This document shows positions 2,358 through 46,334 of a stretch of DNA of 64,000 nt, in pieces. The stretch covers positions 62,001-126,000 of the IMG/VR virus record IMGVR_UViG_2541047086_000003. One strand, 5' to 3'. The DNA comes from an uncultured virus (IMG/VR IMGVR_UViG_2541047086_000003). Taxonomy: Duplodnaviria > Heunggongvirae > Uroviricota > Caudoviricetes. The notes under the pieces are model-generated. The model did no database searches and was not told where the DNA came from. It saw only the letters and a program-made list of their open reading frames with translations. The translations under genes and the position numbers were made by a program. Position 1 is the first letter of the stretch. Each line of letters begins with the position of its first letter.

Positions 2358-2448
2358 ACCTCAGATGATAGTGCCTTTATGTATCTCAATCTCTTGTTGA
2401 ATACATAGTCTTCAAGCCTATTTCAACTTATAAGTTATTCTTATCTCA

Positions 2449-2676
2449 TTATTTAATCCAATTCGCCGGTGGAACGCTCAATACTCGATATTGTTCATCT
2501 AAATAAGCATGTTTCCTCTCCCAATCACTTTTCTTCCATGCTTCTTGATTTGTGTATGATGGATATATAGGTTTTGGATATTCACCGTTCACCCATCCCT
2601 CTTCAATATGATTTAGCTTGGCTTCGTTGACTTTATCATCGTATTTGTACCATACAGTTATCATTTTAGCTGCCAT
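2449..2676 (-). CDS. Hypothetical protein
   Basis: 75-aa ORF, RBS AGGAGAGG. Confidence 0.7.
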   Translation of the reverse strand: MAAKMITVWYKYDDKVNEAKLNHIEEGWVNGEYPKPIYPSYTNQEAWKKSDWERKHAYLDEQYRVLSVPPANWIK

Positions 2677-2709
2677 AAGTCATCCTCTCCTTTTAAAATC
2701 GCAGTTTTA

Positions 2710-3306
2710 TCATTTTACTATTCTTAAAAACAATGATCCCGACCAGGAAAATTTCAACATGCTCAAATCATGCTCTATATTAATGATGTAAGATCGCAAC
2801 CTCATTCTAATATCATCTGTTTTCATTTCTGACGAATTGTATTTTCTTGTTAACTCAACTATATTCTTTAACAATTCTCTGTGCTCTTTTTTATAATCAA
2901 CCCCTTTATTTTGAGCAATTTTTTCAAGGAATTGCAAATATTCAGAAGGAATTGTCTGATTATAAGTAATGTAGTTTTCAATTTTATATAGGGATGTTTT
3001 TATTGAAACTAAGGCATCTTCAATTAATGAATCGTAAATTTTTAAAGAAAAAAACAAAATCAATTGATAAGCAGTGTAAGAAAAAATCATATCTCTCGTA
3101 GAAGAAAAGACAGTTCCATCGGCTACATATCCTAAAATTTTCATTACAATTAAAGAACCCAAGTATGCTTCAAATAAATATATTAAAATATTAACAATTA
3201 GACGTAATACAAAGAAAGGATATTTGTTCTTGATGTAAAGGCAAAATAACAAAAGTGCCAATATTATAAATATCTTGTTACTAATGATTCCTATTAATAA
3301 TTGCAA
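2710..3306 (-). CDS. Membrane protein
   Basis: 198 aa, about 3 N-terminal TM segments, very AT-rich. Confidence 0.7.
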   Translation of the reverse strand: MQLLIGIISNKIFIILALLLFCLYIKNKYPFFVLRLIVNILIYLFEAYLGSLIVMKILGYVADGTVFSSTRDMIFSYTAYQLILFFSLKIYDSLIEDALVSIKTSLYKIENYITYNQTIPSEYLQFLEKIAQNKGVDYKKEHRELLKNIVELTRKYNSSEMKTDDIRMRLRSYIINIEHDLSMLKFSWSGSLFLRIVK

Positions 3307-3356
3307 TCAATCACTTCCATTTTTATATTTGGATGAAAGACTGGTTTCATTACAAC

Positions 3357-3830
3357 TTAATCAATCCTTGAGAACAGCTCGTTCAGTACTCTGTCAGGAT
3401 CAATACCATTACTATCTAGATTTTCACTTAGCTGCCCCAATAATAGGGCAATCTCATCTCGATTAAACTTAAATTCTTCCTTGTCTAAGTCTAGTAACAG
3501 TTCTAATGACTTCACAACTTTAACAATTTGGACTGGTGAAAGATTTAGTTCGACTTCCTGTTTCCTGTCGATTGTAACTGGAACAGATAATAAAGAAGAA
3601 GGGACTTTTAAGCTTCTGCTTCCGAAAAGAATTCTAACCATTTGGCCGGTCAATTCGTAATACTGGCCTTCTAGTTTTCCTTGAGAACCTTTTTTTCTTA
3701 TCAAGGCAGCTTTATCTGATGACCCATTATAATAATTATCATGCAGCAAAACTTCAGTACCGGCAGTCAAGCTTTGTTTTTCTTCTTCAGAAAGTTCGCT
3801 TATTTTAACCCATTCTTTATCACTAGCCAA
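3357..3830 (-). CDS. Hypothetical protein
   Basis: 157-aa ORF, RBS AAGGTGGG. Confidence 0.7.
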   Translation of the reverse strand: MASDKEWVKISELSEEEKQSLTAGTEVLLHDNYYNGSSDKAALIRKKGSQGKLEGQYYELTGQMVRILFGSRSLKVPSSLLSVPVTIDRKQEVELNLSPVQIVKVVKSLELLLDLDKEEFKFNRDEIALLLGQLSENLDSNGIDPDRVLNELFSRID

Positions 3831-3842
3831 TTAAAACCCACC

Positions 3843-4160
3843 TTAATTATATTTTTCAATGATTCTTGAAGCAGCGTCATTAAAAGCTGTTTCTGGGCAC
3901 TTAGAATTAAAAATATTTAATAGCTTTTCTTCAGTGAATTCCCTTTTCATATCCGCAATCATTTGGTTTTCACAGTCATAAGAATTAAAACTTAAATGGG
4001 CTAAATCACTGAGCGAAGATGATTCTCCTTCTGGGAGTTGAATTTCATTTTGGCGGGGATTATACATATAAAAACCACCAATATATTTAAAGCTTTTAGA
4101 TATCTCCATTTTATGAATTGTCGAGTCGTCTAAATTTAACTCTGATATGAACTTATACAT
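3843..4160 (-). CDS. Hypothetical protein
   Basis: 105-aa ORF, RBS AAGGAGAG. Confidence 0.7.
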   Translation of the reverse strand: MYKFISELNLDDSTIHKMEISKSFKYIGGFYMYNPRQNEIQLPEGESSSLSDLAHLSFNSYDCENQMIADMKREFTEEKLLNIFNSKCPETAFNDAASRIIEKYN

Positions 4161-4213
4161 TATGTACTCTCCTTCATTTATTAAGATGAAAGAATGATTT
4201 TAACTTAATTGCT

Positions 4214-4489
4214 TTACTCGTTTAAGTATCCTTTTTCCGTTTCAGATATTATTCCGCCCCACTCAGATGACCAAAGTGTAAATGTTTTGCTGTTTGTTAG
4301 TTTAACGAAAATCGGGTAGGAATCAACGGGCTCTATTCTTGCCTTTTGTCCCAACATCTCTGAGTAGACTTCTTCAAAATCTTGCTTACTTGACCAGGAA
4401 GGCTTTTTTATGTATGCATATTCCACCACATCACCTAAAATATCCTTCATTTCTCTAGTTAGAATAATTGTGTCATTGATTAGTTGCAT
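4214..4489 (-). CDS. Hypothetical protein
   Basis: 91-aa ORF, RBS GAGGTG. Confidence 0.7.
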   Translation of the reverse strand: MQLINDTIILTREMKDILGDVVEYAYIKKPSWSSKQDFEEVYSEMLGQKARIEPVDSYPIFVKLTNSKTFTLWSSEWGGIISETEKGYLNE

Positions 4490-4518
4490 ATTGCACCTCT
4501 ATCTAGGTTAAAGATTTT

Positions 4519-4908
4519 TTATTCATTAACACCATTTTCATATTCAAGGTTGTATGTTGCTATTTCGTGTACTCCTATATCCCCTGCAAAGTTTCCATCC
4601 TCATATTCCTGTTGCAAATAAACCGCTTTATCTTTTTCGAAGATTTCTCTTGCTTCAACTAATTCAGTTACAGCTTGTGACCCCATTCGATCTGTTACAG
4701 TAAAAACTAAGCACCGTTTTAACTCGGTACCGTCTTTAAGGACTACGTCTGCTATGACGTACCCATTTGGCTTTAATTCGCCAATTTCATTGCGTCTTTT
4801 ATCAATTGCCTCTTGAAGAACCACAGAAACAGTATTGTTATCGGACTTACTTAAAGCCATTTCTAATTCTTCAATTTCTTCAAGTAACACTTGAATTTCC
4901 TCTCTCAT
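4519..4908 (-). CDS. Hypothetical acidic protein
   Basis: 129-aa ORF, RBS AAGGGAGAG. Confidence 0.7.
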   Translation of the reverse strand: MREEIQVLLEEIEELEMALSKSDNNTVSVVLQEAIDKRRNEIGELKPNGYVIADVVLKDGTELKRCLVFTVTDRMGSQAVTELVEAREIFEKDKAVYLQQEYEDGNFAGDIGVHEIATYNLEYENGVNE

Positions 4909-4967
4909 TTTATCTCTCCCTTTGTTGTAAAGTGCAATTTTATGCTGTTCCTCAAAGTGTCTCGCAA

Positions 4968-5282
4968 TTATTCCACTTTCAACAAGATTGCTTTTTGATT
5001 TCTAAACTCTGTCAATTCAATATTTTTTTGAAGACCCTGATCCAATAAGAAGTGATACATTTTTTCTGTTTGATTATCCTTTTTTTCGTTGGGCATTCCC
5101 CGGAAAGCCATATTACCGCATGTATAATAGAGGCAGTAACCGTCGTCAAACATCTTCTCAAAAGTGAAACCCGCTGAAATATTGCTTAGTCCTTTTACTC
5201 TGCTTTTAGAGCTCTCAGATTTTTTAAAGTTGCCTTTTAATAAAATTCGCTGAACTTTTGCTTTTAAAGAAGTTGGCAACAT
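4968..5282 (-). CDS. Hypothetical protein
   Basis: 104-aa ORF, RBS AGAGGA. Confidence 0.7.
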   Translation of the reverse strand: MLPTSLKAKVQRILLKGNFKKSESSKSRVKGLSNISAGFTFEKMFDDGYCLYYTCGNMAFRGMPNEKKDNQTEKMYHFLLDQGLQKNIELTEFRNQKAILLKVE

Positions 5283-5383
5283 TTCTTTTCCTCTTTTCCC
5301 TATGAAAGTACGATTTTATAAAAAAAGCCTGCAATTATCCTTCATGTATACATTGCAGGCTACAATTCCCACTTAGTTCTGCC

Positions 5384-5626
5384 CTAGTTTTGCTTTACTC
5401 TTTCAACGAATCTTGATGCTAACTCCCTGTATATTACTTCACTAATCATATGTAGTTGAGTGATATTCGTATTAAAAGTATCATGTAAATTTCTAACCTT
5501 TCCCTGCTCTAGGACACCTGATTCCCGCCACTGTTTTAATTCATTAAAGCAATCTGCTAGAAAGGTATCCGTTTGCTCTTTTAAATGTTGTTCTAAATTA
5601 TTCAATCTCTCCACTCTCTTTTCCAT
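5384..5626 (-). CDS. Hypothetical protein
   Basis: 80-aa ORF directly downstream of the sigma-A promoter at 5659-5687. Confidence 0.65.
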   Translation of the reverse strand: MEKRVERLNNLEQHLKEQTDTFLADCFNELKQWRESGVLEQGKVRNLHDTFNTNITQLHMISEVIYRELASRFVERVKQN

Positions 5627-5658
5627 TGTTTTTTAATGTTTCCTTAACTTGTAACTTT

Positions 5659-5687
5659 AATATACCATGATCACTTAAAGTGATCAA
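5659..5687 (-). promoter_or_regulatory. Sigma-A promoter overlapped by a 19-bp palindromic operator
   Basis: Minus strand TTGATC-17bp-TATATT with extended TG; palindrome TGATCACT-TAA-AGTGATCA at 5668-5686. Confidence 0.75.
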
Positions 5688-5694
5688 TATCTTT

Positions 5695-5898
5695 TTAATC
5701 TTTTTTGTAAATCAACAGCTCATGCAACTCAATGTCTAAATATGTACAGACTTTATCCAACAGATCCCTTGGGTACCGCTCCATTTCGTCATGATACAGC
5801 TTTCTAACTGTGTTAAAACCATGGTCAATATCATTGGACAGCTTTCGAATACTGATATTCCTTTCGTCTAATATTGGCTTTAAATTTGATTTAATCAA
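5695..5898 (-). CDS. yopB: YopB-like Cro/XRE HTH transcriptional regulator
   Basis: Probable TTG start at 5898 after [26 protein letters not shown]...[13 protein letters not shown]. Confidence 0.8.
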
Positions 5899-5991
5899 TA
5901 TTACTACCTCGCATTCATTATGTATGATCACTTTAAATTATCATTATATCCATAAAAAAGGTCAAGGATATACCTTGACTATGTATTAAGC

Positions 5992-6429
5992 TTACCAATC
6001 AAATGAATCTTCATGTTCAAATCCATAAATACCTTTAATCCACACATCTCCGCATCCTGGATTCTTTGTAATCTCTAACACATGATTACGATTTGCATCT
6101 CCCTCTACTCGATCTGCAGCAGTATAGTCGGCATAGTTCCCTACAAACTGCTTTTCACTACGTGGGAATACCCAGCCAGCAAGAGTTATCCTACTGATTT
6201 TCATATTTAGAGTACACCCCTCAGCATTGCTAATTGTGAATTTGTAGAAGAGCCAAGTGCGATAATAGTTCCGATCAAAATAATCTGCCATTGAAAAACT
6301 CTCTGAATCCTCACTCATGTGAAAATTCACGTTTTTGTAGTCTAATGTAAGCTTCGCCTCAGCACTTGGTGTGTTAAAACTCAATATAAAACCAATGCAA
6401 ATCACAACCAAAAAGATTAGCTTTTTCAT
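5992..6429 (-). CDS. Secreted protein
   Basis: Sec signal peptide MKK-hydrophobic-AEA; RBS GGGGAGAGG. Confidence 0.75.
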   Translation of the reverse strand: MKKLIFLVVICIGFILSFNTPSAEAKLTLDYKNVNFHMSEDSESFSMADYFDRNYYRTWLFYKFTISNAEGCTLNMKISRITLAGWVFPRSEKQFVGNYADYTAADRVEGDANRNHVLEITKNPGCGDVWIKGIYGFEHEDSFDW

Positions 6430-6733
6430 TTCCTCTCCCCCTTTTCCAAAATTATACTATATTTGAAATAAAGGTGAAAGAACAGGCAGAAGCTTCTCGA
6501 TTTTCCTATATTCTCTATGATATAGCTAGATATACACGTATCTATGAATATCTACATGTATTTATAAGTATTTATACCTCCCTATATCACACAAATACAC
6601 CTTATTGAGAACAAAAATATTTATTTTAGTTCATTTTTAAGAACAATTCTTCCATTTTTATGATATAATCATCACTGCTTATAGGCAACCTTACTGCTTA
6701 TTCGCCATATGGTATAGGAAAGAGGTTCTTTTA

Positions 6734-7828
6734 ATGAACGTAAAACATTCTAACTGTTTCTTTGTTATCAGGCTGTTTGCTGCTCTTTGTGTGTTGATTG
6801 GTCATGCTACAAGAGATCTAAATATTTCTGTCTTTGGTTATACCCCAGAGAGCAAAGCAATATTTCACACCGGCATATCAATCTTCTTTTTTCTAAGTGC
6901 ATTTTTTCTTTTCACTTCCTATGAAAGATCTAAGCTTAAAGGGAATAATGTAACTGATTTTTATTGGAGCAGAATCATCAGAATCGCACCCGCTATATAC
7001 ACCTATGCTATCGTCTCCACCATCCTGTTAATTGTTCTGGGAGCTCTTTCATTAACAGTATTCACTACTAAAGAGTACTGGATATGGCTTCTGAGCAATC
7101 TTGTGCTATACCCTCAATACTTCCCTGACATATTCCATCACATTGGCACAGGTCGCCTTAACGATTCACTTTGGACAATTCCTGTTCAGATTAGCTTTTA
7201 CCTGGTGTTACCCGCAATTTATTGGTTTTATAAACGTTTCGGATTCCAAAAAATGATTCTTTTCTCTTTTGCTGTTTCCGCTTTCAGTGTGTTGGTTTCT
7301 TTTATAACATTGAAGCACTCGCCTGACAGTTTGATCGGTAACCTGTACTTACATTCTTTCCTGCCACAGATGTTTTATTTCACTTTGGGCATCTTCTGGG
7401 CAAAGGCATGGAGAAAGTCACCGCCGCAGCATATTGTTTTATTTTTATCTTCGGTAATTTTATTTTTACTCATTAAGGCAGACCCCATGCATCTTAGTTC
7501 AATAAACAGCACATTATGGAGCTTTTTATGGTTCGTACCTCTGAGCTATGCACTCGTCTGGTTTGGTTACAATGGGCCGAAGATATTGTGGCAGCTGAAC
7601 CGGTTAGACGATATCAGTATGGGAATTTTTATATGGCACATGGTGATCATCAACATCTTCTTATACACTGGAATTAATAAAACATTGTCTGATTACCCGC
7701 TGATCATAGCCCTAATTGCTGTTACTGCTGCATCCGCATTTCTTTCGTACAGAATAGTGGAAAAACCCGCTCTTAAATTACGTAATATCAAGAAAAACAA
7801 ACCGGTTAAAACAAGGATTGCGAGCTAA
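6734..7828 (+). CDS. Acyltransferase family 3 (OafA-like O-acetyltransferase), moron
   Basis: About 10 TMs; motifs R.FAALCVLIGH, FFFLSAF, SRIIRIAP, SLWTIPVQ, SMGIFIWH, VEKP; own extended -10 (TGATATAAT, 6661-6669) and downstream hairpin. Confidence 0.85.
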   Translation: MNVKHSNCFFVIRLFAALCVLIGHATRDLNISVFGYTPESKAIFHTGISIFFFLSAFFLFTSYERSKLKGNNVTDFYWSRIIRIAPAIYTYAIVSTILLIVLGALSLTVFTTKEYWIWLLSNLVLYPQYFPDIFHHIGTGRLNDSLWTIPVQISFYLVLPAIYWFYKRFGFQKMILFSFAVSAFSVLVSFITLKHSPDSLIGNLYLHSFLPQMFYFTLGIFWAKAWRKSPPQHIVLFLSSVILFLLIKADPMHLSSINSTLWSFLWFVPLSYALVWFGYNGPKILWQLNRLDDISMGIFIWHMVIINIFLYTGINKTLSDYPLIIALIAVTAASAFLSYRIVEKPALKLRNIKKNKPVKTRIAS

Positions 7829-7918
7829 CTGCAAGGGCTGTTCTTATGTAGGCAGCCCGAATCCTGTTTAGCATGAAATGGTGTTTTTATTTAAAATAGG
7901 CTTTGGAATACTAACGTT

Positions 7919-8029
7919 TCATCCAATAACTTTGATATTTTCGCTTTCACATGATGGACAGTCTTCATCAAAGTCATCGCCATTCCATTTATACCCGCAT
8001 TCTTCACACTTGATTAGCAGCTCATCCAT
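7919..8029 (-). CDS. Very small zinc-ribbon protein (36 aa)
   Basis: MDELLIKCEECGYKWNGDDFDEDCPSCESENIKVIG; RBS GGGGAG. Confidence 0.6.
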   Translation of the reverse strand: MDELLIKCEECGYKWNGDDFDEDCPSCESENIKVIG

Positions 8030-8043
8030 TTTATCTCCCCTTT

Positions 8044-8226
8044 TCATTCTGTTTCGTAAACAATAGATGACTTTTCATTTTCTTTTACCGTCTGTGCCAC
8101 AACAAAGCCTGTATTATTAAAAATTTCTCTATAATCTTTAGGATTATGAATGACATAATGCTTAAACCCAAGTTTGTTTGCTCTCTCATTTGCAAGATTG
8201 ATTGCAAAATCTTTGCTATATCCCAT
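8044..8226 (-). CDS. Hypothetical protein
   Basis: 60-aa ORF coupled to the upstream gene. Confidence 0.65.
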   Translation of the reverse strand: MGYSKDFAINLANERANKLGFKHYVIHNPKDYREIFNNTGFVVAQTVKENEKSSIVYETE

Positions 8227-8432
8227 TACAACCCTTTTTTCATTTCTTGTAATTGATTGTATACTTGCTCTAATTCATCATCGTATAGCTGAAACTCTTT
8301 AACATCTTCTTCTGACTGTTTCACCTTAAAATCAATAGTAATCTCTCCATTGGGATCAGGGTTGTTTATCTTATAAGAAACTTCCGCTCCATCATCGTAG
8401 TCAAATTTAATCCATCTCTTCATGTTAATCAC
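8226..8432 (-). CDS. Hypothetical protein
   Basis: ORF with RBS AAAGGTG (start probably 8423). Confidence 0.65.
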   Translation of the reverse strand: MINMKRWIKFDYDDGAEVSYKINNPDPNGEITIDFKVKQSEEDVKEFQLYDDELEQVYNQLQEMKKGL

Positions 8433-8459
8433 CTTTCTTTAAATACATGTTTTATTTCT

Positions 8460-8624
8460 TTATTTAATCTTAGCTTCTATTTGTACAAACTCTCCCAGTG
8501 GCTCAGCACATGCTACTTCGTACATGCAGTCGTCATATGTATTGAGTAGAACTTGTGTTTCCTCTGTTATTTCCCCTTTGTCTATCAACTCTTGCAATGA
8601 ATCAATCAATTGTTTAACCTTCAT
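8460..8624 (-). CDS. Hypothetical protein (54 aa)
   Basis: MKVKQLIDSLQELIDKGEITEETQVLL...; RBS GAGAGGGG. Confidence 0.55.
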   Translation of the reverse strand: MKVKQLIDSLQELIDKGEITEETQVLLNTYDDCMYEVACAEPLGEFVQIEAKIK

Positions 8625-8650
8625 GGCTATTGTATTTCCCCTCTCTTTAG

Positions 8651-8998
8651 CTACTCAGTTGGCCTAATTAATCGTTCAATCCCTTTTACATAATCAAAAA
8701 AGTCGTCTTGATCGTCAAGAATGTCGAACATGTCATGTTCGCCTGTAAAAAGCCATTGTGGATTCTCACCATTTGTTTGAATCTCCATAATAAAGGTGGT
8801 ATCGCCTTCTACAATATCTTCATCTTCTTCGATCTCATAATGATACTCAATCAATTTTTTTAAAGCTTGACTATCTTTTATTTCTTTTGAATAAAATGTT
8901 AACCCCTGATCTTCGTACTCTTTTAATTTAAAGCCATTATCCAGTAAAAATTGAAGGACGTTTTCATTTAAAGTTGTCATAATTATTCCATCTCCCAT
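8651..8998 (-). CDS. Hypothetical acidic protein
   Basis: ORF; start probably ATG 8980 after GGAGATGG. Confidence 0.7.
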   Translation of the reverse strand: MGDGIIMTTLNENVLQFLLDNGFKLKEYEDQGLTFYSKEIKDSQALKKLIEYHYEIEEDEDIVEGDTTFIMEIQTNGENPQWLFTGEHDMFDILDDQDDFFDYVKGIERLIRPTE

Positions 8999-9080
8999 TC
9001 AAGAATTTAAAAATACTAACAACCTCCTGCATAAGCAGGAACGCTCAGGGCTTAATGCGGTTTATTCTCCCCCTGAGGAG

Positions 9081-9413
9081 CTAGATAACACGGGCAAGTC
9101 TTTCACGGTATAATTCGGCTGTAACTCGACTATCTTCTATATCAAACAAAATCGTTCTCTTATCTTTTCCCATTGCTTCTGCTAGAGTCTCTATTTCATT
9201 TTGAGAAAAACTATTTAAAGTGTCCTGTCTATTCTTTGTTATATACTCTGAAACTTCTATTAGGGTCCCTTCGAACATCACTTCGCCGAATTTAGATACT
9301 GTACAAATATTTTGGTTTCTTTTAAAGATTGTGTATCCGTTAATCTCTTCTTTTTGATTGTTGCTGATTTCTTTAATTTGATGAACTAATGTTTTCATTT
9401 CTCGTTCCCTCAT
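9081..9413 (-). CDS. Hypothetical protein
   Basis: ORF directly downstream of the promoter at 9435-9463. Confidence 0.7.
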   Translation of the reverse strand: MREREMKTLVHQIKEISNNQKEEINGYTIFKRNQNICTVSKFGEVMFEGTLIEVSEYITKNRQDTLNSFSQNEIETLAEAMGKDKRTILFDIEDSRVTAELYRERLARVI

Positions 9414-9434
9414 TTCAATTTTTTCTATACTTTT

Positions 9435-9463
9435 ATTATATATTGACTACTTTAAATAGTCAA
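9435..9463 (-). promoter_or_regulatory. Near-consensus sigma-A promoter overlapped by the 19-bp operator
   Basis: Minus strand TTGACT-17bp-TATAAT; operator TGACTACTTTAAATAGTCA at 9444-9462. Confidence 0.8.
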
Positions 9464-9521
9464 ATGTTTTTTGGCAGGTATTTGCTTATTTGGAATGTCA
9501 TGAAACCGCTGTTTGTTTTAT

Positions 9522-9737
9522 TCAATCTTTTTTTATATCCATCGGTGCACCTGGATACACCCCACACCAATAGCAAATTTCCTTAACTTTTCTAGATTCT
9601 TCTTCATTGACTCCGATTACATATAAAAAGTTTTGCTTTATTTCCAACATCGAATAGTGAGTAGCACTATTATCAAAATCACGGTGTCCAGCAGTCTTGT
9701 TAATTGGCTTTACTTTGTCATCAACTTTTAAATTCAT
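9522..9737 (-). CDS. Hypothetical protein
   Basis: 71-aa ORF, RBS GAGGTGAG. Confidence 0.6.
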   Translation of the reverse strand: MNLKVDDKVKPINKTAGHRDFDNSATHYSMLEIKQNFLYVIGVNEEESRKVKEICYWCGVYPGAPMDIKKD

Positions 9738-9795
9738 TGAGCTCTCTCACCTCTTCGCTTTAGTATTGGCTAACAAGCCCCTGTGAAATATTGTT

Positions 9796-9978
9796 TTATT
9801 CCGATTTCAATGCATTCACAAGCTTTTCTTTACAATCATCACATACATTTACAATACTTCTTGCATACGGCACGTATACGCTGTATACGCCCTTTATTCT
9901 TCTGTGTCCACATCCATCGCAATAATCGTTTTCTTCTGATTTATAGACATTGATTTTCTCTCTATCCAAACTACACAC
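9796..9978 (-). CDS. Zinc-finger-like hypothetical protein (5' end uncertain)
   Basis: CDGC...CDDC. Confidence 0.5.
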   Translation of the reverse strand: MCSLDREKINVYKSEENDYCDGCGHRRIKGVYSVYVPYARSIVNVCDDCKEKLVNALKSE

Positions 9979-10091
9979 GCCCGTCCTATCTGATTTTATG
10001 ATATTTAAAGATGTTGTCGATACTATGTAAGACCGAACAATCTAAGTCTTTCATATCCTTAGCCTGACCAGTTCTTGAAATTGTTCCAATC

Positions 10092-10517
10092 TCAATATTT
10101 CTCGTTATCTTTTGTCACTGCGTACCCTCCGTTATTTGGCATGTATCTCATACTGATTAATGCATCGAAAGTTGTATTGATAACTGCCGTCACACTGTTT
10201 GTATTGTATGACCTATACGGCATGTTCCCATGTTCATTTATCGAAAATTCGTACATTTTAATGTCCTTATCGAATGCTAGTTTGAAATTTTTGAATCTGT
10301 CGTCGACCTCTAACGCTTCGAGTATATCTCCAACTAGATTCTTATCACTCTGTATATGGTCTATACGGCATCTATAATTTCCGTCAAAATCAAATAGACT
10401 TACAGTCGATCTATTTCCTTTTCCTGTGTACGGATGCAATTTCAATAAATCAGTTATGATCACTTTAACTTTTCCGTCTTTTCTATCCCATAAATCGATT
10501 GTTCCTTCTTTCATCAC
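10092..10517 (-). CDS. Hypothetical protein
   Basis: 141-aa ORF, RBS AGGAGGG. Confidence 0.7.
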   Translation of the reverse strand: MMKEGTIDLWDRKDGKVKVIITDLLKLHPYTGKGNRSTVSLFDFDGNYRCRIDHIQSDKNLVGDILEALEVDDRFKNFKLAFDKDIKMYEFSINEHGNMPYRSYNTNSVTAVINTTFDALISMRYMPNNGGYAVTKDNEKY

Positions 10518-10548
10518 AGCACCCTCCTATATGTTTAAAATTGTTGTT

Positions 10549-12489
10549 TTAATCATATTGAACATTTTGATTATCATCTAACCAAAATCTTTCATTTCCC
10601 GTATTATATTGTTTGCACAAATTGTTATATTCTCTTTTACTTACATAGATTCGGACATCCATACGAAGTTCATTCCAAGGATTTTTAATAGCCCAATCCA
10701 TCGGGTCAACACTATTCAAAATTGGGTTCCCAAAATAGCTTTTGCCCTTCTTAAAACCTTGTAGTAGTTCGTGCAACTCATGAACTTCACATCCGCAAAG
10801 ATCAGCTATATGTCCTGCTGTTCTTGGATGAAAATGTCCAACTATGGAAGCCGTTTTATTACTAACAACACATTTAAAATCATCTCTATAAAGGTCTGTT
10901 CCATAACCATAAATATTGCAGTATTGCCCGTTATAACTATTCTCTGAAAGTAAAGAAACATTGAGAATATTTCCGTTAGATTCAGGTTTCTCCCAATCTC
11001 CGTTTAGTGTTCTCGCTTCTTCTTTGTCTTTATTAACAATGAATTTTCTATAGATCATAGATTTAAGAAGATTAGGTAAATTCCCTTTAATAGCCTGAGC
11101 AAACCATTGCTTAACTTCAGCTTTTCTTTCGTAATACTCTTGAGTCAGCTTCTCACTTATTACCTGCGCTTGATTATAACGAGCTAAATAAAGACGCTCC
11201 TTTTCTAATTCTTGCTTACTGCCAAAAGTAGATGCATTCATTTTTTTAAGCGAAAGAGATAGTCCCTCAGTTCGATTATCTTCATTTGATAAAAGCGGCA
11301 CAGAGTCTTTATTATCAACAACATCAAAAGTGTGTTCAGGCACATCGTATCGCTCAATCATCCAATCATTGCTACCAGTTGGTTCAAATTCGAAAACATT
11401 TTTTAAATTTTCGGTCTGCATAGTTTGTCCAGTTATTTTAGGTAAGTTCAGATGGGTATATGAAGAAACTGCAATTTCATTTTTCTGCGCTTCTTCTAAG
11501 AGAAAATCTGTTTCCTTTATCATAAGTGGCGTATAGGAAAGCTCTGATGATTTATAGTCTTCTTCAAAAAACTTTTTCTTTATTAAATCAAACATCATGA
11601 TAAGCCATACAATTTCATCATCATCTAAGTCTTTAATAGGTTTTATTGAAGTTCCTTCATATTGTGTAACAAGTCTGTTTTCGGACGAAATATATGCTCG
11701 ATGGTTGTCTCCAAACTCAATATCAAGTATCGAATATGGAAAGTGGTATTCCACAATTCTTTCATAGAAAGCCCTTCCTTTTGATCTTGTTCTCGATAGC
11801 TGTGAGCGAAGTGGATGACGTTGTTTTTCACGATCTGTAAGTATTGAAAGTGTACCTCCATTTCTTACAGCGAATACAAAATAAGAATCGCCTAAGTCTT
11901 GCATGTTCTGTATCATTGCAACTACGATTCCCGAATCAACTGTCATCATCCACTTCAATAAGGTGTTAATATCCTTAAAAACAAAAATATCCTTATATAT
12001 CCGTGGTTTTTTTGAAGTTGCTGTCCCCTGTGTGAATTGCACAATTTCTAGCTCATTTATTGCGTTATATGCGCTATAGCGTAACTCTGCTAGACTATCT
12101 TCGTCACCTATCATTGATTTATATACCCTCTGATCAATTCCATAGTGTGAAAGACTTTCTAATAGGCGCCGTTTGAACTCCTCTTTGATAGTTGTTACTT
12201 CATCAGAGTTAAGCAGGCTTTTGAATTCTTCCAGTTTGGATAATAAAGTATTAAAGATAGAATAATTCTCCAATATCTCATTCAAGGATAATTTTCTCTC
12301 TTTGGTGAAATCCTTTAAATAAGTGTTCATCAACATCAGAGTAGTTACATAGCTTAGGTCATATTTTAAGGATCTCTCCAAGACTTTATTAGCACTTTGG
12401 ATATTCATGTCTCTTAAAGTAACTTCAGTTTTATTAGGGCTTATTCCTGTTATATCAATCCATAGCTGAAACGCTTTTTCAATATTCAT
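10549..12489 (-). CDS. Large hypothetical phage protein
   Basis: 646-aa ORF, RBS AAGGGAGAG; no motif recognised. Confidence 0.8.
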   Translation of the reverse strand: MNIEKAFQLWIDITGISPNKTEVTLRDMNIQSANKVLERSLKYDLSYVTTLMLMNTYLKDFTKERKLSLNEILENYSIFNTLLSKLEEFKSLLNSDEVTTIKEEFKRRLLESLSHYGIDQRVYKSMIGDEDSLAELRYSAYNAINELEIVQFTQGTATSKKPRIYKDIFVFKDINTLLKWMMTVDSGIVVAMIQNMQDLGDSYFVFAVRNGGTLSILTDREKQRHPLRSQLSRTRSKGRAFYERIVEYHFPYSILDIEFGDNHRAYISSENRLVTQYEGTSIKPIKDLDDDEIVWLIMMFDLIKKKFFEEDYKSSELSYTPLMIKETDFLLEEAQKNEIAVSSYTHLNLPKITGQTMQTENLKNVFEFEPTGSNDWMIERYDVPEHTFDVVDNKDSVPLLSNEDNRTEGLSLSLKKMNASTFGSKQELEKERLYLARYNQAQVISEKLTQEYYERKAEVKQWFAQAIKGNLPNLLKSMIYRKFIVNKDKEEARTLNGDWEKPESNGNILNVSLLSENSYNGQYCNIYGYGTDLYRDDFKCVVSNKTASIVGHFHPRTAGHIADLCGCEVHELHELLQGFKKGKSYFGNPILNSVDPMDWAIKNPWNELRMDVRIYVSKREYNNLCKQYNTGNERFWLDDNQNVQYD

Positions 12490-12571
12490 TAAATCTCTCC
12501 CTTCTGTTTAGAATATGCATTTTATTTTGTTTATATTTTATTTTCACTCTAAAAATTACGCAGTCAAGCCT

Positions 12572-14173
12572 TTATGATGTGAGCATGAGAAGCTTCGATG
12601 TATCCAGGATATAATAAGAAGCGTTGTTTACCGTAGCACTGTAAGATTGCTCACCCTCAAAATCATTGATTACGTCTTTTTCTTCTGCCGTCATATCCTG
12701 ATATTTTACCTTGCCATATGAAGGAGGAAGCCAATTTTTCTTTTGGCTGCCAAAGATATTAAATTTCTTTAGAATTTCCATATCTTTAAACTCGATGTGA
12801 CATGTTCCTTTTTTATAGAAAGTTACATAAAAGTACTTTAATTCTATTTTTTTCGTTTCGCCGTAATGCTCAGCTAGCTTTAAAGTTTCATCTATGTTTA
12901 TGTCTTCTGTTAACCCATTGTCAAGGTAATTGAAAACTTTTTCGATATCTTTCAACTTTTCTAAGACCTTGTAGTCTGTTGGGTTATACCGACCATCTAA
13001 CCAGCTATACACATTCAATGGGATAATTATTTTTTTGTTAATTTTGTATGATTTATTTGTTTTCCATCCATTATATAAGTGCACATTTTTTGATGATTCA
13101 TCATAGTAATGCTTGTGGCTAAATTCTTCAAAAAGATTAAGTATTGTATCTTCTACGCCCTGTGTCATCTCTTTGCTCATCTGAATTCTCAATGTATAGA
13201 TATTGAACAAAGAAAAGTCATAATCTTTTAATTCCTCAACGTGCTGCAAGTACTTTTGTTTCAGGTTGCTTGTAAAGAGACCCATAAACTGATCATTGTT
13301 AAATAACGTATTCCAATACTTCGCCCTAATTTGTTTTATATATGTATTCTCTATGTCAATTTCTTCGGTATTCTTATCAATTTGCAGCTTCAATATCGGA
13401 GCACTGTCATCATTGAAACTATGCAGCATTAATGGTTTTAAACTGTTGTATTCATTGATTAACTTTAAACCCGCTTTAATTTCATAATTGAATTGTTCTA
13501 CAATCCCTTTTATAAAGTCTGCATTCACCAACTGTGTTGCTTTATAATCGGCACTAATTTTATGGGACTCATCTTTTTTCAATTCTTCTATTAGAACACT
13601 GTCATATTCTTGTTTTTCAATGCTTATATAAATTAGAGCTGTTTCAACTTCTGTGCTTCGCTCCGAACCCTGGAAACCGTTTTGAATGTATTCGACTTCT
13701 GCATTTATTTCCTCTAGCTTACGTATAAGAAATTTCCTGTCATTTGAATACGGATTTTTTAATGTTTCGGCATTTAGTAAGCAAACAATTTGGCCGGATC
13801 TTTGTTGCTTTTCAATTAATTCAATCGCCTTTAATAAATGTTTAACACCGCTACTAAAAGGTGGATTCATAAAAATCAAATCATACTTCTTGTAAGTGCT
13901 AAGCGTCAGAAAATCATCTGCAATCACTCTGTAATCTTTGCCTTTAAGTATGTGTCGTAAGTTTTCATCTTGTTCAATTGTATCAATGTCATATTTCGAA
14001 TTCCTTCTATAGTTGCTGGTGTTTTTAAATTGATTGTGAATAGCTTCTACTAAATTCCCTTTGCCTGCTGAGGGCTCCAGAACGGAGTTAATGTACTTCC
14101 ATTCTACTTTAGATGTCATTTTTCGGATTAACTGTGGTGGTGTCGGATAAAAATCCGGATTATCTTTAAACAT
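12572..14173 (-). CDS. SAM-dependent N6-adenine DNA methyltransferase with DUF4942-like C-terminus
   Basis: DFYPTP, motif I VLEPSAGKG, motif IV MNPPF; C-terminal FYKKGTCHIEF typical of DUF4942. Confidence 0.85.
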   Translation of the reverse strand: MFKDNPDFYPTPPQLIRKMTSKVEWKYINSVLEPSAGKGNLVEAIHNQFKNTSNYRRNSKYDIDTIEQDENLRHILKGKDYRVIADDFLTLSTYKKYDLIFMNPPFSSGVKHLLKAIELIEKQQRSGQIVCLLNAETLKNPYSNDRKFLIRKLEEINAEVEYIQNGFQGSERSTEVETALIYISIEKQEYDSVLIEELKKDESHKISADYKATQLVNADFIKGIVEQFNYEIKAGLKLINEYNSLKPLMLHSFNDDSAPILKLQIDKNTEEIDIENTYIKQIRAKYWNTLFNNDQFMGLFTSNLKQKYLQHVEELKDYDFSLFNIYTLRIQMSKEMTQGVEDTILNLFEEFSHKHYYDESSKNVHLYNGWKTNKSYKINKKIIIPLNVYSWLDGRYNPTDYKVLEKLKDIEKVFNYLDNGLTEDINIDETLKLAEHYGETKKIELKYFYVTFYKKGTCHIEFKDMEILKKFNIFGSQKKNWLPPSYGKVKYQDMTAEEKDVINDFEGEQSYSATVNNASYYILDTSKLLMLTS

Positions 14174-14224
14174 TTTGAGCTCCCCTTTTTAGGGAATGAG
14201 ATGTTTTCCCATCCCCTCATTAGT

Positions 14225-16399: not shown

Positions 16400-17617
16400 T
16401 CAGGTATCGAGCCAGTTTGTGAGCAGCTTCCTCATTCTCAAAGAAGGTATGTACAAAGTTATTTCTTCTCCATCCCTAATAGCAGACCTCCATACCCATT
16501 GCACTAACTCAGACAATGCAAATGCGTCCTGGTCTATTGTAATACTGTACTTTTCTTTAAAATAATTATACAGAACAGTATTCGTATATCTGTTTATTGT
16601 ATATGCTAAGTGTTTCTTATGCTTAAACTCGTTTGTAGCACGTGCATTACATGAAACAAAGCCTTTTGTATACCCATTGCCCTTTATTCTGTTCTTATGG
16701 TCTGAATAAGTCGTCCACATAGCTTCATCACTTGACGACTTAACAATATTATTAAAGTAATTGAATACATTGTTCTTCACCTTTTTGATTGTGTAAGGTG
16801 ATTTATTTTTATACCAATTAGAAGACAGTGAAAACTCCAGTTGTCCTATTGTGTTTAGATTACCTTCATATATTTTTATTTTGTTTCTTAACTCTTTCTT
16901 AAAGCTCCTTTCATAATCAGTACTGTGATCAATGAACCTATACTGCCCATCCATGTAAGCTGAAATGTACTTTTGATACTTAATGTTGTTCAGATCGTAG
17001 TAATACTTTTGTATTTGAGCATCAAACATATATGTAAGTATGTAAACCTCCTTGAATAACTGGAATACGTCGGCAGGAAAGTTCCAAATCAATATATTGT
17101 CTTTGAAATACATTAGGTTGTTATTTAACGCCATATCTCGAATATCATCGTATCGTGTTTCATAGTCTTTTTTTTCTTCATTCCATTTGACAAAACCGTC
17201 TTCAACATAAATCAAATTGGAATCAAACAGTGTTGTTAGATCATGTTTCTTCACCTGTAATTGTTCCACTACTTCCATGACTTCATCTAATATCAGTGTG
17301 TAATTGCCTGCAAGTATAAGTTCTTTTGTCTCGTCGTTTGCGTTTTTAAAAAGGTTATGAGTTGCCACAATGTTTTTATTCTGTGATAAGAGTTCGTGAA
17401 AGGATTCAAACTTATATTGTGTTTTATCACCTTTCTTCTTTACTTTAGGTTCGAAAAATTGTTTGGACTTTATGCTTTTCTTTATGCGCTCAACTTCATT
17501 TAAATAAGGTGTGATGAATATAAAGGTTTCTTCTTTACTGGCAGAATTCATTTTGTTAATCGCTGCAGATGTTTTACCGCTCCCCATAACCGAATCAACT
17601 ATTTTAATTTTATTCAT
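16400..17617 (-). CDS. yonV: YonV-like superfamily-2 helicase-like ATPase
   Basis: Walker A MGSGKT, ITPY (motif Ia), LILDEV (Walker B), QWVWRSAIR (motif VI-like). Confidence 0.8.
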   Translation of the reverse strand: MNKIKIVDSVMGSGKTSAAINKMNSASKEETFIFITPYLNEVERIKKSIKSKQFFEPKVKKKGDKTQYKFESFHELLSQNKNIVATHNLFKNANDETKELILAGNYTLILDEVMEVVEQLQVKKHDLTTLFDSNLIYVEDGFVKWNEEKKDYETRYDDIRDMALNNNLMYFKDNILIWNFPADVFQLFKEVYILTYMFDAQIQKYYYDLNNIKYQKYISAYMDGQYRFIDHSTDYERSFKKELRNKIKIYEGNLNTIGQLEFSLSSNWYKNKSPYTIKKVKNNVFNYFNNIVKSSSDEAMWTTYSDHKNRIKGNGYTKGFVSCNARATNEFKHKKHLAYTINRYTNTVLYNYFKEKYSITIDQDAFALSELVQWVWRSAIRDGEEITLYIPSLRMRKLLTNWLDT

Positions 17618-25489: not shown

Positions 25490-26131
25490 TTCGCAAAAAC
25501 CTTATTCATGCCCACCCGTCCTGATCATGTTGATGAAAAAATTAAAGATTACATAAAAAATAAAGTGCCCCACTTCTTTATCAATGCGAAGGATAAAGAA
25601 GAACATAGCGTTGAAAAACTGAATTTGAGTACAGTTAACAGGTTAGAAAAAGTTATTCCTTCTGAAAGAATTAATTTTAAATCTGTAGCAGGTTGCTTTG
25701 ATTACCGTACATTATTGAATAATAAGAATGCTAGATTAGATCAAGCAATAATTAAAGAATATACCAGGCTAGATCGCAACAAAAAGTGGTTAATGAACAG
25801 TGATGAAGGAGTTAAACAGGGGCAAAAGCTTTATGTCTATAAGATCATTAAAGATCGTTTAATGGAAATACACTGCAATGAGAAATACATAGTTGATGTT
25901 TTAGTCAAACACCTTTATATGAAGAAAAGCAAGTTTAAAACAACATTATGGGAATGCTTTGGTGAAACAATTTTATCTAATATTAGAAGGAATGTTTACA
26001 ACGAAATTGTATGCATCGAGTGTAGAAAGATAGTTAAAAATCCTAAGCAAAGACAAATAAGGTGTGAAACGTGCCAAAAAAAACATAAACAGTACTTGGA
26101 TAGACTGAGAAAAAAGAGAAATTCCGCTTGA
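25490..26131 (+). CDS. yonO: YonO RNA polymerase, exon 2 (spliced product 838 aa)
   Basis: TTC GCA AAA ACC TTA TTC ATG continues the exon 1 frame; C-terminal CIEC...CETC zinc ribbon. Confidence 0.9.
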
Positions 26132-30294: not shown

Positions 30295-30402
30295 TTAAAA
30301 CACATTTTAAGAGCGCCCAGTGATGATTGAAGTCTCCCCTACTTCTCTTTTGCTGGGCGTTTTATAAAACGTGTTTTTTAAAATTATATTGGAGGTGTAT
30401 GA

Positions 30403-35890: not shown

Positions 35891-35930
35891 GATAAAATAA
35901 CACTTTTATAAAATTTAGGAGGAATACTCA

Positions 35931-41673: not shown

Positions 41674-41735
41674 TTTGAGGGGATCCTTCCCCTCTCCTTT
41701 TTAAATAAAAGTCAGTTTTTAAACAGACTTAGGAG

Positions 41736-43768: not shown

Positions 43769-43963
43769 ATAACTACATATAACTATTGGGTTAAGGCCCT
43801 GAGTCGGAAATGGGCAACCGTCGAGCAAGTCAAAGAAGCCTACCAGGAATTCAACGATGTGACAAAAGAAGAGCTACAATTAGGCGTAAAGAATGGTTTA
43901 GTCACTTTGGAGGAGTACAAAGAAATCACTGGCGAAGACTACAAAGAAGCAGACACGGAATAA
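43769..43963 (+). CDS. XkdX-family protein (YomP-like) with an ATA codon at the start position
   Basis: Hand-translated xTTYNYWVKALSRKWAT...GLVTLEEYKEITGEDY; RBS AAAGGAGG 8 nt upstream of ATA. Confidence 0.7.
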   Translation: MTTYNYWVKALSRKWATVEQVKEAYQEFNDVTKEELQLGVKNGLVTLEEYKEITGEDYKEADTE

Positions 43964-43979
43964 AATACAAGTTTTATTT

Positions 43980-44958: not shown

Positions 44959-45960
44959 ATGGCCAGAGAAATAAAACAAAACATGATGCGCTCTAGAGCC
45001 GAAAAGTTGCCCGAAGTCACAGATGAAATGTGGGGTCAGGTTGATGACGAGCATAGAAGCTTAACACAAGAATTTCTTGATGCCCACTCATTCCGAGATA
45101 AAACTAGGAAGCAATACAACTCCTCTCTTCGCCAGTTCTTCTGGTGGGTGCATAATTCTTTGAATGGGAAGAAGCTTTACAAAATATCCAAAAGGGATTT
45201 CATCAGATATCAAAGCTTCCTGAAAAATAGAGGGATGTCTTCAAGTGGAATAGCTTTAAAAAAGGCTGGAGTATCTTCTTTAAATAACTACATTGAAAAT
45301 GTTGTTGCTGAAGATGACGATAATTACAAATCATTCAGAAACTTCACAAGAGGTCTTCCTGCCATCCCTAAAACAACCACGTATGAGAAAGTAAAGGTTA
45401 CTTACGATGAATACAGAACAATGATGAAAGTGCTTGAAGAAGATAAAAACTATTTGGGAATGGCTTGGTTAGCTACTGCCTTTAATGTAGGTGCCAGAAG
45501 AGCTGAAATTATTCAGTTTAAAACCGAAATCCTGAATTATGAGATACCTGAAGGTCAATCTTATGTCATGGCTCACAAAGTTCTTGGAAAAGGAAAAGGC
45601 GAAGGAAAACCCCTCGACTACATGATTAACACAGAAGCTCTGGAATATTTGAAGCTTTGGCATGAACAACGGGGATATGACCATGAATATTTATTTACTA
45701 CACAGTACGGTGGCCAACCAAGACAAATGTCAGAGGGGTGGGCTGACTATTTTTGTTCTGATGTTCTTTCTGATATCCTCGGTCGCCGCATTAACCCTCA
45801 CCTCTTTAAGGCCTCCTGTATTACTTACCTTCTTGAAGTCAAGAAAATTAAGATTGAGCTCGTGAGTAAATATGTTGCACAGCATAATGACGTGTCTACA
45901 ACAATTAAGCATTACGACCTTCGTGATTTTAAAGAAGAAAAGAATCAAATCTTCTCGTAA
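44959..45960 (+). CDS. yomM: Tyrosine recombinase (YomM-like)
   Basis: GARRAE (R), GKGK (K), HLFK (HxxK), QHN (H), HYD (Y); N-terminal SAM-like domain. Confidence 0.9.
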   Translation: MAREIKQNMMRSRAEKLPEVTDEMWGQVDDEHRSLTQEFLDAHSFRDKTRKQYNSSLRQFFWWVHNSLNGKKLYKISKRDFIRYQSFLKNRGMSSSGIALKKAGVSSLNNYIENVVAEDDDNYKSFRNFTRGLPAIPKTTTYEKVKVTYDEYRTMMKVLEEDKNYLGMAWLATAFNVGARRAEIIQFKTEILNYEIPEGQSYVMAHKVLGKGKGEGKPLDYMINTEALEYLKLWHEQRGYDHEYLFTTQYGGQPRQMSEGWADYFCSDVLSDILGRRINPHLFKASCITYLLEVKKIKIELVSKYVAQHNDVSTTIKHYDLRDFKEEKNQIFS

Positions 45961-46220: not shown

Positions 46221-46334
46221 CGACACTCTTTATGAAATCCCTCTTTTATGCAGAATCAAAATCCTTCAATTGAGGGATTTTGCTTATGGATAAAACCTTA
46301 AACTTATTTCCATATTTGACGATAATATGGAGAG

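Follow-up and report, generated by a model that had tools for sequence, protein, structure and literature searches.

The DNA considered here is a stretch of 64,000 nucleotides (the window) from an uncultured virus, IMG/VR record IMGVR_UViG_2541047086_000003. The genome is a single contig of 128,463 bp, called G000 below, and the window is its bases 62001-126000. G000 is an SPbeta-like phage, and the window has the SPbeta layout of an early/accessory arm and a late arm. Genes lie on the minus strand up to about 21,600, and on the plus strand from the yonO homologue at 22324 onwards. Between genes of both arms there is a short inverted repeat with a 6-bp centre that varies from copy to copy. This element is the subject of this text. 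A first-pass annotation had listed ten copies between 2694 and 12524, and read them as the borders of integron-like cassettes in the accessory arm.

G000 was compared with four complete relatives: SPbeta (AF020713), SPbetaL1, BUCT083 and Goe12. Sites in the window are given in window coordinates, and positions marked G000 are those of the whole genome. For window positions 2400-12800, the DNA matches in the phage collection are all Spbetavirus records, and they cover at most 13% of this region. This means that the arm is largely novel in content.

All ten listed copies are indeed present, on the minus strand. The core of the element is TAAAA-N6-TTT(T/C)A. A logo made from 66 oriented copies shows that the palindrome reaches further than this, to about 28 bp: tYtaRa-TAAAA-N6-TTTTA-tYtaRa, or 11+6+11. 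Two inverted arms are present, each with an inner part (TAAAA or TTTTA) and an outer palindromic tYtaRa. The central region between them is exactly 6 bp long and asymmetric, and its first base is a G or T in 55 of the 66 copies. Inverted arms around an asymmetric 6-bp core form the layout of a tyrosine-recombinase core site, as had been proposed from the ten copies.

With 36% G+C and numerous TAA stops, the genome might produce such a pattern by chance, wherever a TAA stop, an A-run, a T-run and a ribosome binding site (RBS) meet in AT-rich intergenic DNA. The counts leave practically no room for this. The window holds 20 strand-matches (12 sites) to TAAAANNNNNNTTTYA where 3.45 are expected, and none of 100 dinucleotide shuffles of the window attains 20; the maximum is 11. 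The claim of an excess over a shuffled background therefore stands. In the intergenic DNA of G000 (18.5 kb), exact TAAAA-Nk-TTT(C/T)A occurs 25 times at k=6, and 0-2 times at any other k from 1 to 13. In the coding DNA (111 kb) there are 5 copies at k=6 and 0-3 at other k.

The enrichment is limited to spacing 6 in other counts as well. A de-novo count of palindromic 5-mer dyads is led by TAAAA-N6 with 25 copies, against at most 3 at any other spacing. SPbeta has 35 copies per strand at N6 and 0-7 at other spacings. Five SPbeta-type records contain 33-36 motif copies, compared with 0-2 for the reversed control, and AT-rich control phages show no enrichment.

Sites were scored with a symmetric 28-bp weight matrix, trained on the exact TAAAA-N6-TTTTA copies of G000 and SPbeta, with a cut-off of at least 8. 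It finds 40 sites in G000 (1-7 in three shuffles) and 46-47 in each of the four relatives. Given its training on exact copies, the matrix is harsh on arm mismatches, and by its scores the ten listed sites divide into six strong ones, three weak ones and one that fails. An exact copy of the perfect 28-bp consensus palindrome is absent from phi3T and from three phi3Ts x SPbeta hybrids. Stem-loops and two further palindromes are annotated in the GenBank record of SPbeta, which marks none of the present sites. The confinement of the element to 2694-12524, or to the accessory arm, did not hold up: it is also found between late (structural) genes, genome-wide, and across a broad family of phages.

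Within a genome, no core is used twice and none is palindromic, as holds for the 40-47 sites of each of the five genomes. Between genomes, the same cores return. Each pair of genomes has 21-36 identical cores, whereas shuffling the letters of the cores leaves 0.9-1.5 on average and never more than 8. These shared cores are collinear in nine out of ten genome pairs (for example 30/30, 29/29 and 21/21), and in the tenth, SPbeta/Goe12, 35 of 36 are in order. Seen from G000, one or more relatives carry the identical core for 26 of its 40 sites; 10 others have a one-mismatch core at best, and 4 have none.

G000 and SPbeta form a distant pair, with conserved genes that are just 63-92% identical in DNA. 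Choosing site pairs by core likeness and order gives 25 pairs, of which 21 have identical cores and 4 differ by one base, all in order. Conversely, 0 of 600 non-collinear pairs are identical. Even if the 15 unmatched sites are counted as diverged orthologues, 21 of 40 cores are identical, which by our own arithmetic is more than the 18-26% predicted by drift at 20-25% divergence. Cores of intermediate divergence are few in this pair.

What lies between the sites is far less constant. Between 2694 and 12524 the order of cores is TGCATA, CAACAA, CAGCAG, (CATGGA), TCGTAC, TCATTC; this order is kept across the phages, while the intervening open reading frames (ORFs) differ. For example, where G000 has an ORF of 646 amino acids, three relatives that have both flanking sites carry one or two ORFs of 72-93 amino acids. 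Over all genomes, 226 slots between consecutive shared sites were compared (38 further slots of more than 12 kb were skipped). In 80 of them less than 20% can be aligned, in 97 a part can, and 49 are conserved. For the majority of G000 sites, blastp finds no match in SPbeta for the ORF on either side.

The idea that the sites delimit cassettes thus holds for units of one to a few genes, whose content varies among relatives while the order of sites and cores is kept. It needs to be widened in that the sites reach beyond the accessory arm.

The sequences right next to the sites were compared at 45 addresses, meaning cores at a given map position. These remain after removal of 12 low-scoring, in-ORF or non-collinear cores, and each was required to have one copy scoring at least 12. 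Over 265 genome pairs, the 60-bp flanks are homologous on both sides in 42, on one side in 103, and on neither side in 120. At least two unrelated classes of flank are found upstream at 34 addresses and downstream at 29. Three of the four possible flank combinations are present at 12 of the 45.

The outer arms, of 6 bp each, follow the flanks that they adjoin: next to an unrelated flank 3.3-3.8 of the 6 bases are identical, compared with 5.3-5.5 next to a homologous one. The joints are therefore within the inner 16 bp, and alignments show the same base by base. In these alignments, blocks of homology begin and end at the edges of the sites. In some places a site is the sole local DNA match, as at 12483-12539 in the window and at G000 2753-2798, 108232-108296 and 124158-124245. 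Among the gaps in pairwise homology, 223 of 1508 end within 25 bp of a site, which is about 8-fold over the 1.8% of the genome involved.

Such joints could also arise with no dedicated enzyme. The elements would then be passive linkers, offering microhomology to general or phage homologous recombination, along the lines of Botstein's modular theory and the PeSLs of phage T4. The joints do lie in 16-22 bp of identity common to otherwise unrelated neighbours, and many breakpoints are found elsewhere. Natural and laboratory phi3T/SPbeta hybrids also exchange DNA in long homologous tracts. On the other hand, 16 bases of identity is very short for homologous recombination. Passive linkers also leave unexplained that the palindromic arms are invariant from Bacillus to Lactococcus phages, and that the motif tracks one conserved recombinase gene. 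We regard this explanation as quite improbable.

The likeness to PeSLs and to Botstein's linkers is nonetheless worth spelling out. These too are short repeats at gene junctions of hyperplastic regions, where novel ORFs are exchanged. PeSLs consist of an early promoter and a stem-loop, however, and their exchange is driven by homology. The element described here has no promoter signal and no stable hairpin, and is a palindromic protein-type site with a unique core.

Three laboratory hybrids of phi3Ts and SPbeta (MT366947, MT366948 and PP526179) were uninformative for the mapping of joints, because long tracts of the two parents are about 99.7% identical and because parts of the hybrids match neither reference. 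One such part is at about 101434-102159 of the Hyb2phi3Ts-SPbeta record, which matches neither the phi3T nor the SPbeta reference. This implies that the phi3Ts parent differs from the phi3T record.

Placement relative to genes was surveyed for 206 strong sites in the five genomes, using a crude gene model. There are 157 sites at co-directional junctions, 25 between convergent or divergent genes, and 24 within an ORF. In 56% of the co-directional junctions, a start codon follows at a distance of 10-35 nt. The stop codon that was seen to coincide with the TAA of the left arm recurs in 41 of these 157. Single-base arm variants (C) are found in both orientations relative to transcription, about 6 versus 5 in G000, with no bias for G-U over A-C.

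The replicative helicase gene contains one well-scoring copy, conserved at that place (G000 35642, which is outside the window; SPbeta 103848; SPbetaL1 99343). Its core differs between G000 and SPbeta/SPbetaL1.

A position within the transcribed spacer, shortly ahead of so many start codons, is what might be expected of an element that works as RNA, upstream of the Shine-Dalgarno sequence. It could tune translation or mark messenger RNA for processing. A folded arm hairpin is not what the listed sites offer, as 7 of the 10 fold to 0 kcal/mol and the arm hairpin forms in just 2 (-2.4 and -2.5 kcal/mol). An RNA hairpin was rejected on these grounds. The arm variant in both orientations, the lack of a G-U preference and the 25 sites between convergent or divergent genes speak against a role in RNA more generally, and position-specific conserved cores are left unaccounted for. 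This makes the RNA explanation highly improbable.

Table 1 The elements and the YomM-like gene in the window. Positions are window coordinates; scores are those of the weight matrix.
Feature	Position	Strand	Score or basis	Remarks
Junction element, core CTGCGA	2694..2709	-	12.7	Exact TAAAA-N6-TTTTA
Weak element, TGAAA-CCAGTC-TTTCA	3334..3349	-	5.8	
Junction element, core TCATTC	4187..4202	-	13.8	Downstream of ORF 4214-4489
Decayed element	4497..4512	-	alignment	Core 2 bp too short; upstream of ORF 4214-4489
Weak element, core TTGCAC	4927..4942	-	5.5	
Junction element, core TCGTAC	5303..5318	-	14.2	
Junction element, core ACACCA	7874..7889	-	13.0	Exact match
Apparently decayed element, core CATGTA	8439..8454	-	2.0	
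Apparently decayed element, ACAAA-CAGCGG-TTTCA	9501..9516	-	-12.3	
Junction element, core CAACAA	10536..10551	-	19.8	
Junction element, core TGCATA	12509..12524	-	15.4	Upstream of 646-amino-acid ORF 10549-12489
Late-arm junction element, core CTTTAA	29778..29793	+	22.5	Core collinear in 4/4 relatives
Late-arm junction element	30365..30380	+	10.8	Exact match; upstream of ORF 30403-31410
Late-arm junction element	35893..35908	+	20.1	Upstream of ORF 35931-36395
Late-arm junction element, core GTCAGT	41706..41721	+	24.0	
Junction element	43961..43976	+	22.4	Followed by terminator-like hairpin; about 1 kb upstream of YomM-like gene
YomM-like tyrosine recombinase gene	44959..45960	+		ORF opens at 44926; probable start ATG 44959
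Junction element	46233..46248	-	16.0	Just downstream of YomM-like gene
Late-arm junction element, core TATAAA	62182..62197	+	24.3	

The individual sites of the window are listed in Table 1. Several of them show on a small scale how cores stay while genes change. The TGCATA core at 12509 is found in all four relatives, where an island of 44-56 bp with 86-89% identity is the sole DNA match. CAACAA at 10536 has the same core in three relatives, with 4 unrelated classes of upstream flank and 4 of downstream flank. TCGTAC at 5303 is identical in all four relatives, amid 4 upstream and 3 downstream classes. TCATTC at 4187 follows a homologous gene in SPbetaL1, BUCT083 and Goe12 as it does in G000, and three different downstream genes start a few bases past its right arm.

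Other sites appear to be worn copies. The first-pass annotation had noted variants with a shorter core near 4508 and 9784. The first is a decayed copy of a TCGTAC site: at the 4497 position three relatives hold an intact TAAAA-TCGTAC-TTTTA before the same gene, and homology begins exactly at the element. The one at 9784, with a 5-bp core, was seen too. At the place of the 9501 element, between the CAACAA and TCGTAC addresses, SPbetaL1, BUCT083 and Goe12 have a strong CAGCAG. Goe12 has a strong CATGGA site after its homologue of ORF 8651-8998, which matches the place of 8439. Because 9501 and 8439 sit where relatives have strong variants with one different core base, they look like decayed copies.

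Some sites have less of a counterpart. The element at 2694 separates the stop of ORF 2710-3306 from the RBS of ORF 2449-2676, and SPbetaL1 carries CTACGA at the corresponding place. TTGCAC at 4927 is one mismatch away from SPbeta's TTGCAT, yet its order relative to TCGTAC differs. The 3334 element has no counterpart in the four compared phages; it is one of the two listed sites that fold as an arm hairpin, at -2.5 kcal/mol. ACACCA at 7874 is private to G000 among the five genomes, and adjoins an opposite-strand acyltransferase gene at 6734-7828. This plus-strand gene (acyltransferase-3/O-acetyltransferase) lies within the early arm with its own long upstream gap, and looks like a moron-type insertion.

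In the late arm, SPbeta has GACAGT at the place collinear with GTCAGT (41706), before a downstream gene that is 80% identical. It has TATAGA at the place collinear with 62182, in an isolated 88-bp island of 86% identity. The core at 46233, in the transcription direction of the compared genomes, is GAGGGA, and it follows yomM in SPbeta, BUCT083 and Goe12 too.

The motif is not limited to close relatives of SPbeta. Compared with a reversed control, it is enriched in Geobacillus phage E3 (30 motif copies against 7), in the B. cereus-group phages PBC2 (23 against 1), Tsamsa (23 against 3) and Chewbecca (13 against 1), in Psychrobacillus phage Perkons (17 against 2), in Lactococcus phage AM1 (9 against 1), and weakly in a Staphylococcus SPbeta-like phage (17 against 8). 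PBC2, Tsamsa and Chewbecca have identical cores in the same order among themselves. Unrelated Bacillota phages show no such excess: motif and reversed counts are 0/0 for SPO1, 0/2 for SPP1, 4/4 for K, 0/0 for phi105 and 0/1 for A511. A single-protein query did not find YomM in these five control phages.

Bacterial genomes were also looked at, and a host-wide feature was rejected, as no excess of the motif remains in whole genomes once prophages are set aside. The Bacillus rugosus genome, which has YomM, contains 72 motif matches versus 40 reversed ones, an excess of about one prophage. In Virgibacillus, where YomM is also present, 28 of the 76 genome matches are within 126 kb around the yonO and yomM homologues. 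Fictibacillus (24 versus 47 reversed) and Metabacillus (115 versus 113) have no excess; there yonO is present and YomM was not found. The same query did not find YomM in three 100-kb yonO regions, where counts are 1 versus 1 for Paenibacillus oralis, 0 versus 0 for Oscillibacter, and an ambiguous 7 versus 2 for Mediterraneibacter.

The motif thus appears to follow YomM rather than YonO, with each absence of YomM resting on one protein query. A promoter for the YonO RNA polymerase was rejected as the identity of the element, since two of three yonO regions without YomM are also without the motif. In PMC5467207, YonO is described as starting at a single site upstream of yonK.

That a phage-encoded recombinase is available was borne out. 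G000 has three proteins of the tyrosine-recombinase type, homologues of MrpR, YopP and YomM, and it is the presence of YomM that tracks the motif across phages and genomes. The YomM-like protein has 693 homologues, labelled as tyrosine recombinase or integrase by their sources, and a weak match to Cre (E about 1e-3). Of 26 aligned members of the family, 17 match Pfam Phage_integrase, and R, K, H-x-x-K, H and Tyr are invariant. Identity to the YomM of G000 falls from 80% in E3 through 62% (Perkons) and 57% (the Staphylococcus phage) to 35% (PBC2) and 32% (AM1). The gene lies among the late genes, on their strand. YomM is the most likely candidate for the enzyme that would act on the sites.

YopP was considered as well. 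Its homologue is in the lysogeny operon at G000 57743-58801, outside the window, and matches Pfam Phage_integrase at 1.9e-14. Aligned with XerA it shows R, K, H-x-x-R and H, with the Tyr one residue off. The YopP proteins of G000 and SPbeta share just 32% identity, and identity to the distant phages is 24-30%. YopP is a less likely enzyme than YomM, having diverged this far (24-32%) although the arms of the sites are identical.

In E3 and Perkons, a YopP-like integrase gene adjoins a DndB-like 'DNA sulfur modification-associated' gene, as yopP adjoins yopQ in SPbeta. The pair is kept across genera.

Arms of this kind need not be cut. A 5-N6-5 dyad is the usual layout of dimeric helix-turn-helix operators, and the arms may be the site of a non-catalytic dimeric DNA-binding protein, with cassette exchange as a by-product of short shared sequence. 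Candidate binders would be a stoperator-like silencer or roadblock, a ParB/DndB-like protein such as YopQ, or a nucleoid protein. We consider this unlikely, though it is a serious contender. It agrees with where the sites lie, which is in short gaps between genes of both arms and mostly 10-35 nt ahead of a start, and with breakpoints that are not enriched over other junctions. The same phage also has a recombinase-fold protein, MrpR/SroF, that is purely a DNA binder. Moreover, PMC10516654 lists yopQ, yopP and mrpR among the core genes, and describes them as probably active in lysogeny.

Against a mere binder stands the behaviour of the cores. A spacer that is not read should drift, but cores are identical at collinear places amid unrelated flanks. 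Promoters do not coincide with the sites either: on the transcribed strand between 2000 and 13000, the six strong sites are all free of overlap with sigma-A-like promoter matches of at least 10/12, which are themselves not enriched (39 against 44.6). Overlap with a promoter or operator was rejected for these six sites. YopQ was rejected as the binder, as it was not found in the motif-bearing phages AM1 and PBC2.

As for MrpR, PMC10516654 reports ten ChAP-seq peaks, all at SPBRE promoters, and the SPBRE sequence is different. SPBRE is a repeated intergenic element of the same phages, bound by the recombinase-fold protein MrpR (also YopR or SroF), as described in PMC10516654 and 10.1101/2025.11.27.690993. 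In this it resembles the element. These sources give about ten SPBRE sites at promoters, where there are about 40-47 sites between cistrons here. The MrpR operator was rejected as the identity of the element: the word common to 9 of 10 MrpR promoter regions named in PMC10516654 is a different sequence. The SPbeta-type SPBRE is not enriched in the window, with 3 matches at up to 2 mismatches where 1.45 are expected.

The lysogeny genes of G000 are of the phi3T type, with a YopP that is 76% identical to that of phi3T and 32% to that of SPbeta. Its repressor therefore probably reads a different operator than the SPbeta-type SPBRE.

The stoperators of mycobacteriophage L5 and the start-associated sequences of Cluster K phages are another precedent for many bound sites. 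They too come in dozens of copies, in small gaps, on both arms and near starts. They are asymmetric, oriented with transcription and identical to each other, unlike the present sites, which are palindromic and have a variable, position-specific centre. The variant arm is found in both orientations here, and the accessible part of PMC10516654 reports MrpR peaks just at SPBRE.

The integron-like reading of the first-pass annotation did not survive. Promoterless units of one or two genes in one orientation, imperfect palindromes and a link to a tyrosine recombinase do recall integrons. There is, however, no head made up of integrase, attI and promoter: the YomM-like gene is among the late genes, and the YopP-like gene is in the lysogeny operon, outside the arrays. 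An attC site is a long imperfect palindrome; the sites here are 28 bp with 5-bp invariant inner arms, and are present on both arms of the genome. In addition, neighbouring cores differ, so that adjacent sites would not be expected to yield excised circles. It is in-register replacement between genomes that fits the pattern.

The reading that we prefer, drawn from comparison of sequences, is that the elements are lox-like recombination sites with heterospecific cores, which would mediate in-register exchange of cassettes. We give it about an even chance. The inverted arms, of about 11 bp each, would be bound by a single conserved phage protein. The asymmetric 6-bp core would be an address, unique within a genome and common to related phages at the same map position. 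Productive recombination would be restricted to sites with the same core, in other words to the same junction in two co-resident genomes. The partner could be a co-infecting phage, a prophage or a sister copy.

What would be swapped is a promoterless unit, running from a right half-site through RBS, ORF or ORFs and stop to a left half-site, with gene order left unscrambled. The different cores would also block deletions inside one genome. YomM, which is Cre-like and encoded in the late arm, would be the likeliest enzyme; as a late protein, it would act when many copies of the genome are present. A phage or cassette with an altered core would leave the exchange pool, and this may be what conserves the cores. 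The first function of the sites may have been a different one. We speculate that it was to join identical sites in concatemers, or in permuted DNA with terminal redundancy, as with Cre/lox in P1. SPbeta-like phages are described in 10.1101/2021.11.22.469490 as packaging by headful with variable permutation.

A wider form of this proposal is offered tentatively, as an idea that would sooner turn out wrong than right. It holds that this is a natural system of recombinase-mediated cassette exchange, in which about 40 heterospecific sites serve as shared coordinates across a wide family of large Bacillota phages that takes in SPbeta, phi3T, E3, Tsamsa/PBC2 and Lactococcus 949-type phages. YomM would be specific for pairs of the same core, and might also circularise permuted genomes.

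Cre/loxP of phage P1, with its 13+8+13 site, is the obvious comparison. Shared features are the inverted arms, an asymmetric spacer whose identity would set pairing, a Cre-like protein in the form of YomM, and a phage that packages by headful. In the present case a genome has about 40 sites rather than a single one, laid out as 11+6+11; their map is common to many phages, and in YomM a Lys replaces the second Arg. Engineered exchange between heterospecific lox or FRT sites is closer in one respect: many sites with different spacers would permit in-register replacement without deletion.

The pdif/Xer modules of Acinetobacter plasmids have the same layout, at 28 bp and 11+6+11 with variable 6-bp centres, and they too bound units of one to a few genes in varied contexts. 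They differ from the present sites, which are in phage genomes, have symmetric A/T arms, and have cores that are position-specific and collinear. In addition, host chromosomes are not enriched in the motif described here, which tracks a phage recombinase.

A number of results weigh against recombination at these sites. Breakpoints had been expected to fall in the cores, but there is no excess at sites over other junctions: 223 of the 970 intergenic breakpoints (23%) are at sites, and sites are on 21-25% of junctions. The sites are thus no more favoured than other junctions, and a good many mosaic joints are found away from them. The pattern of joints would also follow from short-homology recombination. 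All four flank combinations occur at none of the 45 addresses. YomM has a Lys for the second Arg of tyrosine recombinases, invariant in all 26 aligned members, and its co-occurrence with the motif is confounded by the shared ancestry of the positive cases.

Finally, orthologous sites chosen independently of the core (44 loci, mostly in close relatives) have core identity of 228/234 (97.4%), similar to the 96.1% of the flanks. This choice requires that both 80-bp flanks are alignable, and at that distance a test of core versus flank has no power. The case for constraint on the cores therefore rests on identical cores amid unrelated flanks, and on the distant pair of G000 and SPbeta.

The window also contains some features that are separate from the element. 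The yonO RNA-polymerase homologue is in two pieces, which match positions 2-644 and 651-845 of the same PHROG. In this region (22324-24201, 24384-25286 and 25508-26131, plus strand) a GIY-YIG/NUMOD3 homing-endonuclease gene parts the pieces, probably as an insertion resembling an intron or intein. A homing endonuclease has split or invaded a second gene too, at 16400-17617 and 17637-18485 on the minus strand. Three large ORFs occupy 10549-16108 on the minus strand: one of 646 amino acids with no Pfam or PHROG match, one of 533 amino acids with DUF4942 and Dam methylase, and one of 627 amino acids with LPD29.

Two other palindromic features of the accessory arm look like operators in their own right. 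The best promoter-like match of the region (11/12), at 9435-9463 on the minus strand, overlaps a perfect 7-bp inverted repeat with a 7-bp spacer. It sits upstream of ORF 9081-9413, and looks like a separate operator-promoter. Near-perfect palindromes at 5660-5690 and 5917-5945, with the same 8-9-bp word, flank a gene of the Cro/C1 helix-turn-helix type at 5695-5931 (Pfam HTH_26, 1e-14). This gene has homologues in all five phages, and the palindromes are likely its own operators.

A literature search, which covered mostly abstracts, found no description of the element or of a role for YomM, although an earlier mention is possible. The question behind it is old. Mosaic joints at gene borders are usually explained by illegitimate recombination followed by selection, or by homologous exchange in shared genes. 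If true, our reading would provide a third answer: sites that are defined and can be counted, and a candidate enzyme to go with them, in the best-studied temperate phage of Bacillus. Botstein's long-sought 'linkers' would then exist in enzymatic form, and a highly conserved orphan recombinase would have a function.

Cassette exchange of this kind would also explain the rapid movement of anti-defence and accessory genes among SPbeta-like phages, and it would deliver a set of mutually orthogonal recombination sites for genome engineering. If confirmed, the sites would be natural landmarks by which SPbeta-like phages can be annotated and compared. Even if they were mere protein-binding sites, the position-specific conservation of their cores would want an explanation.

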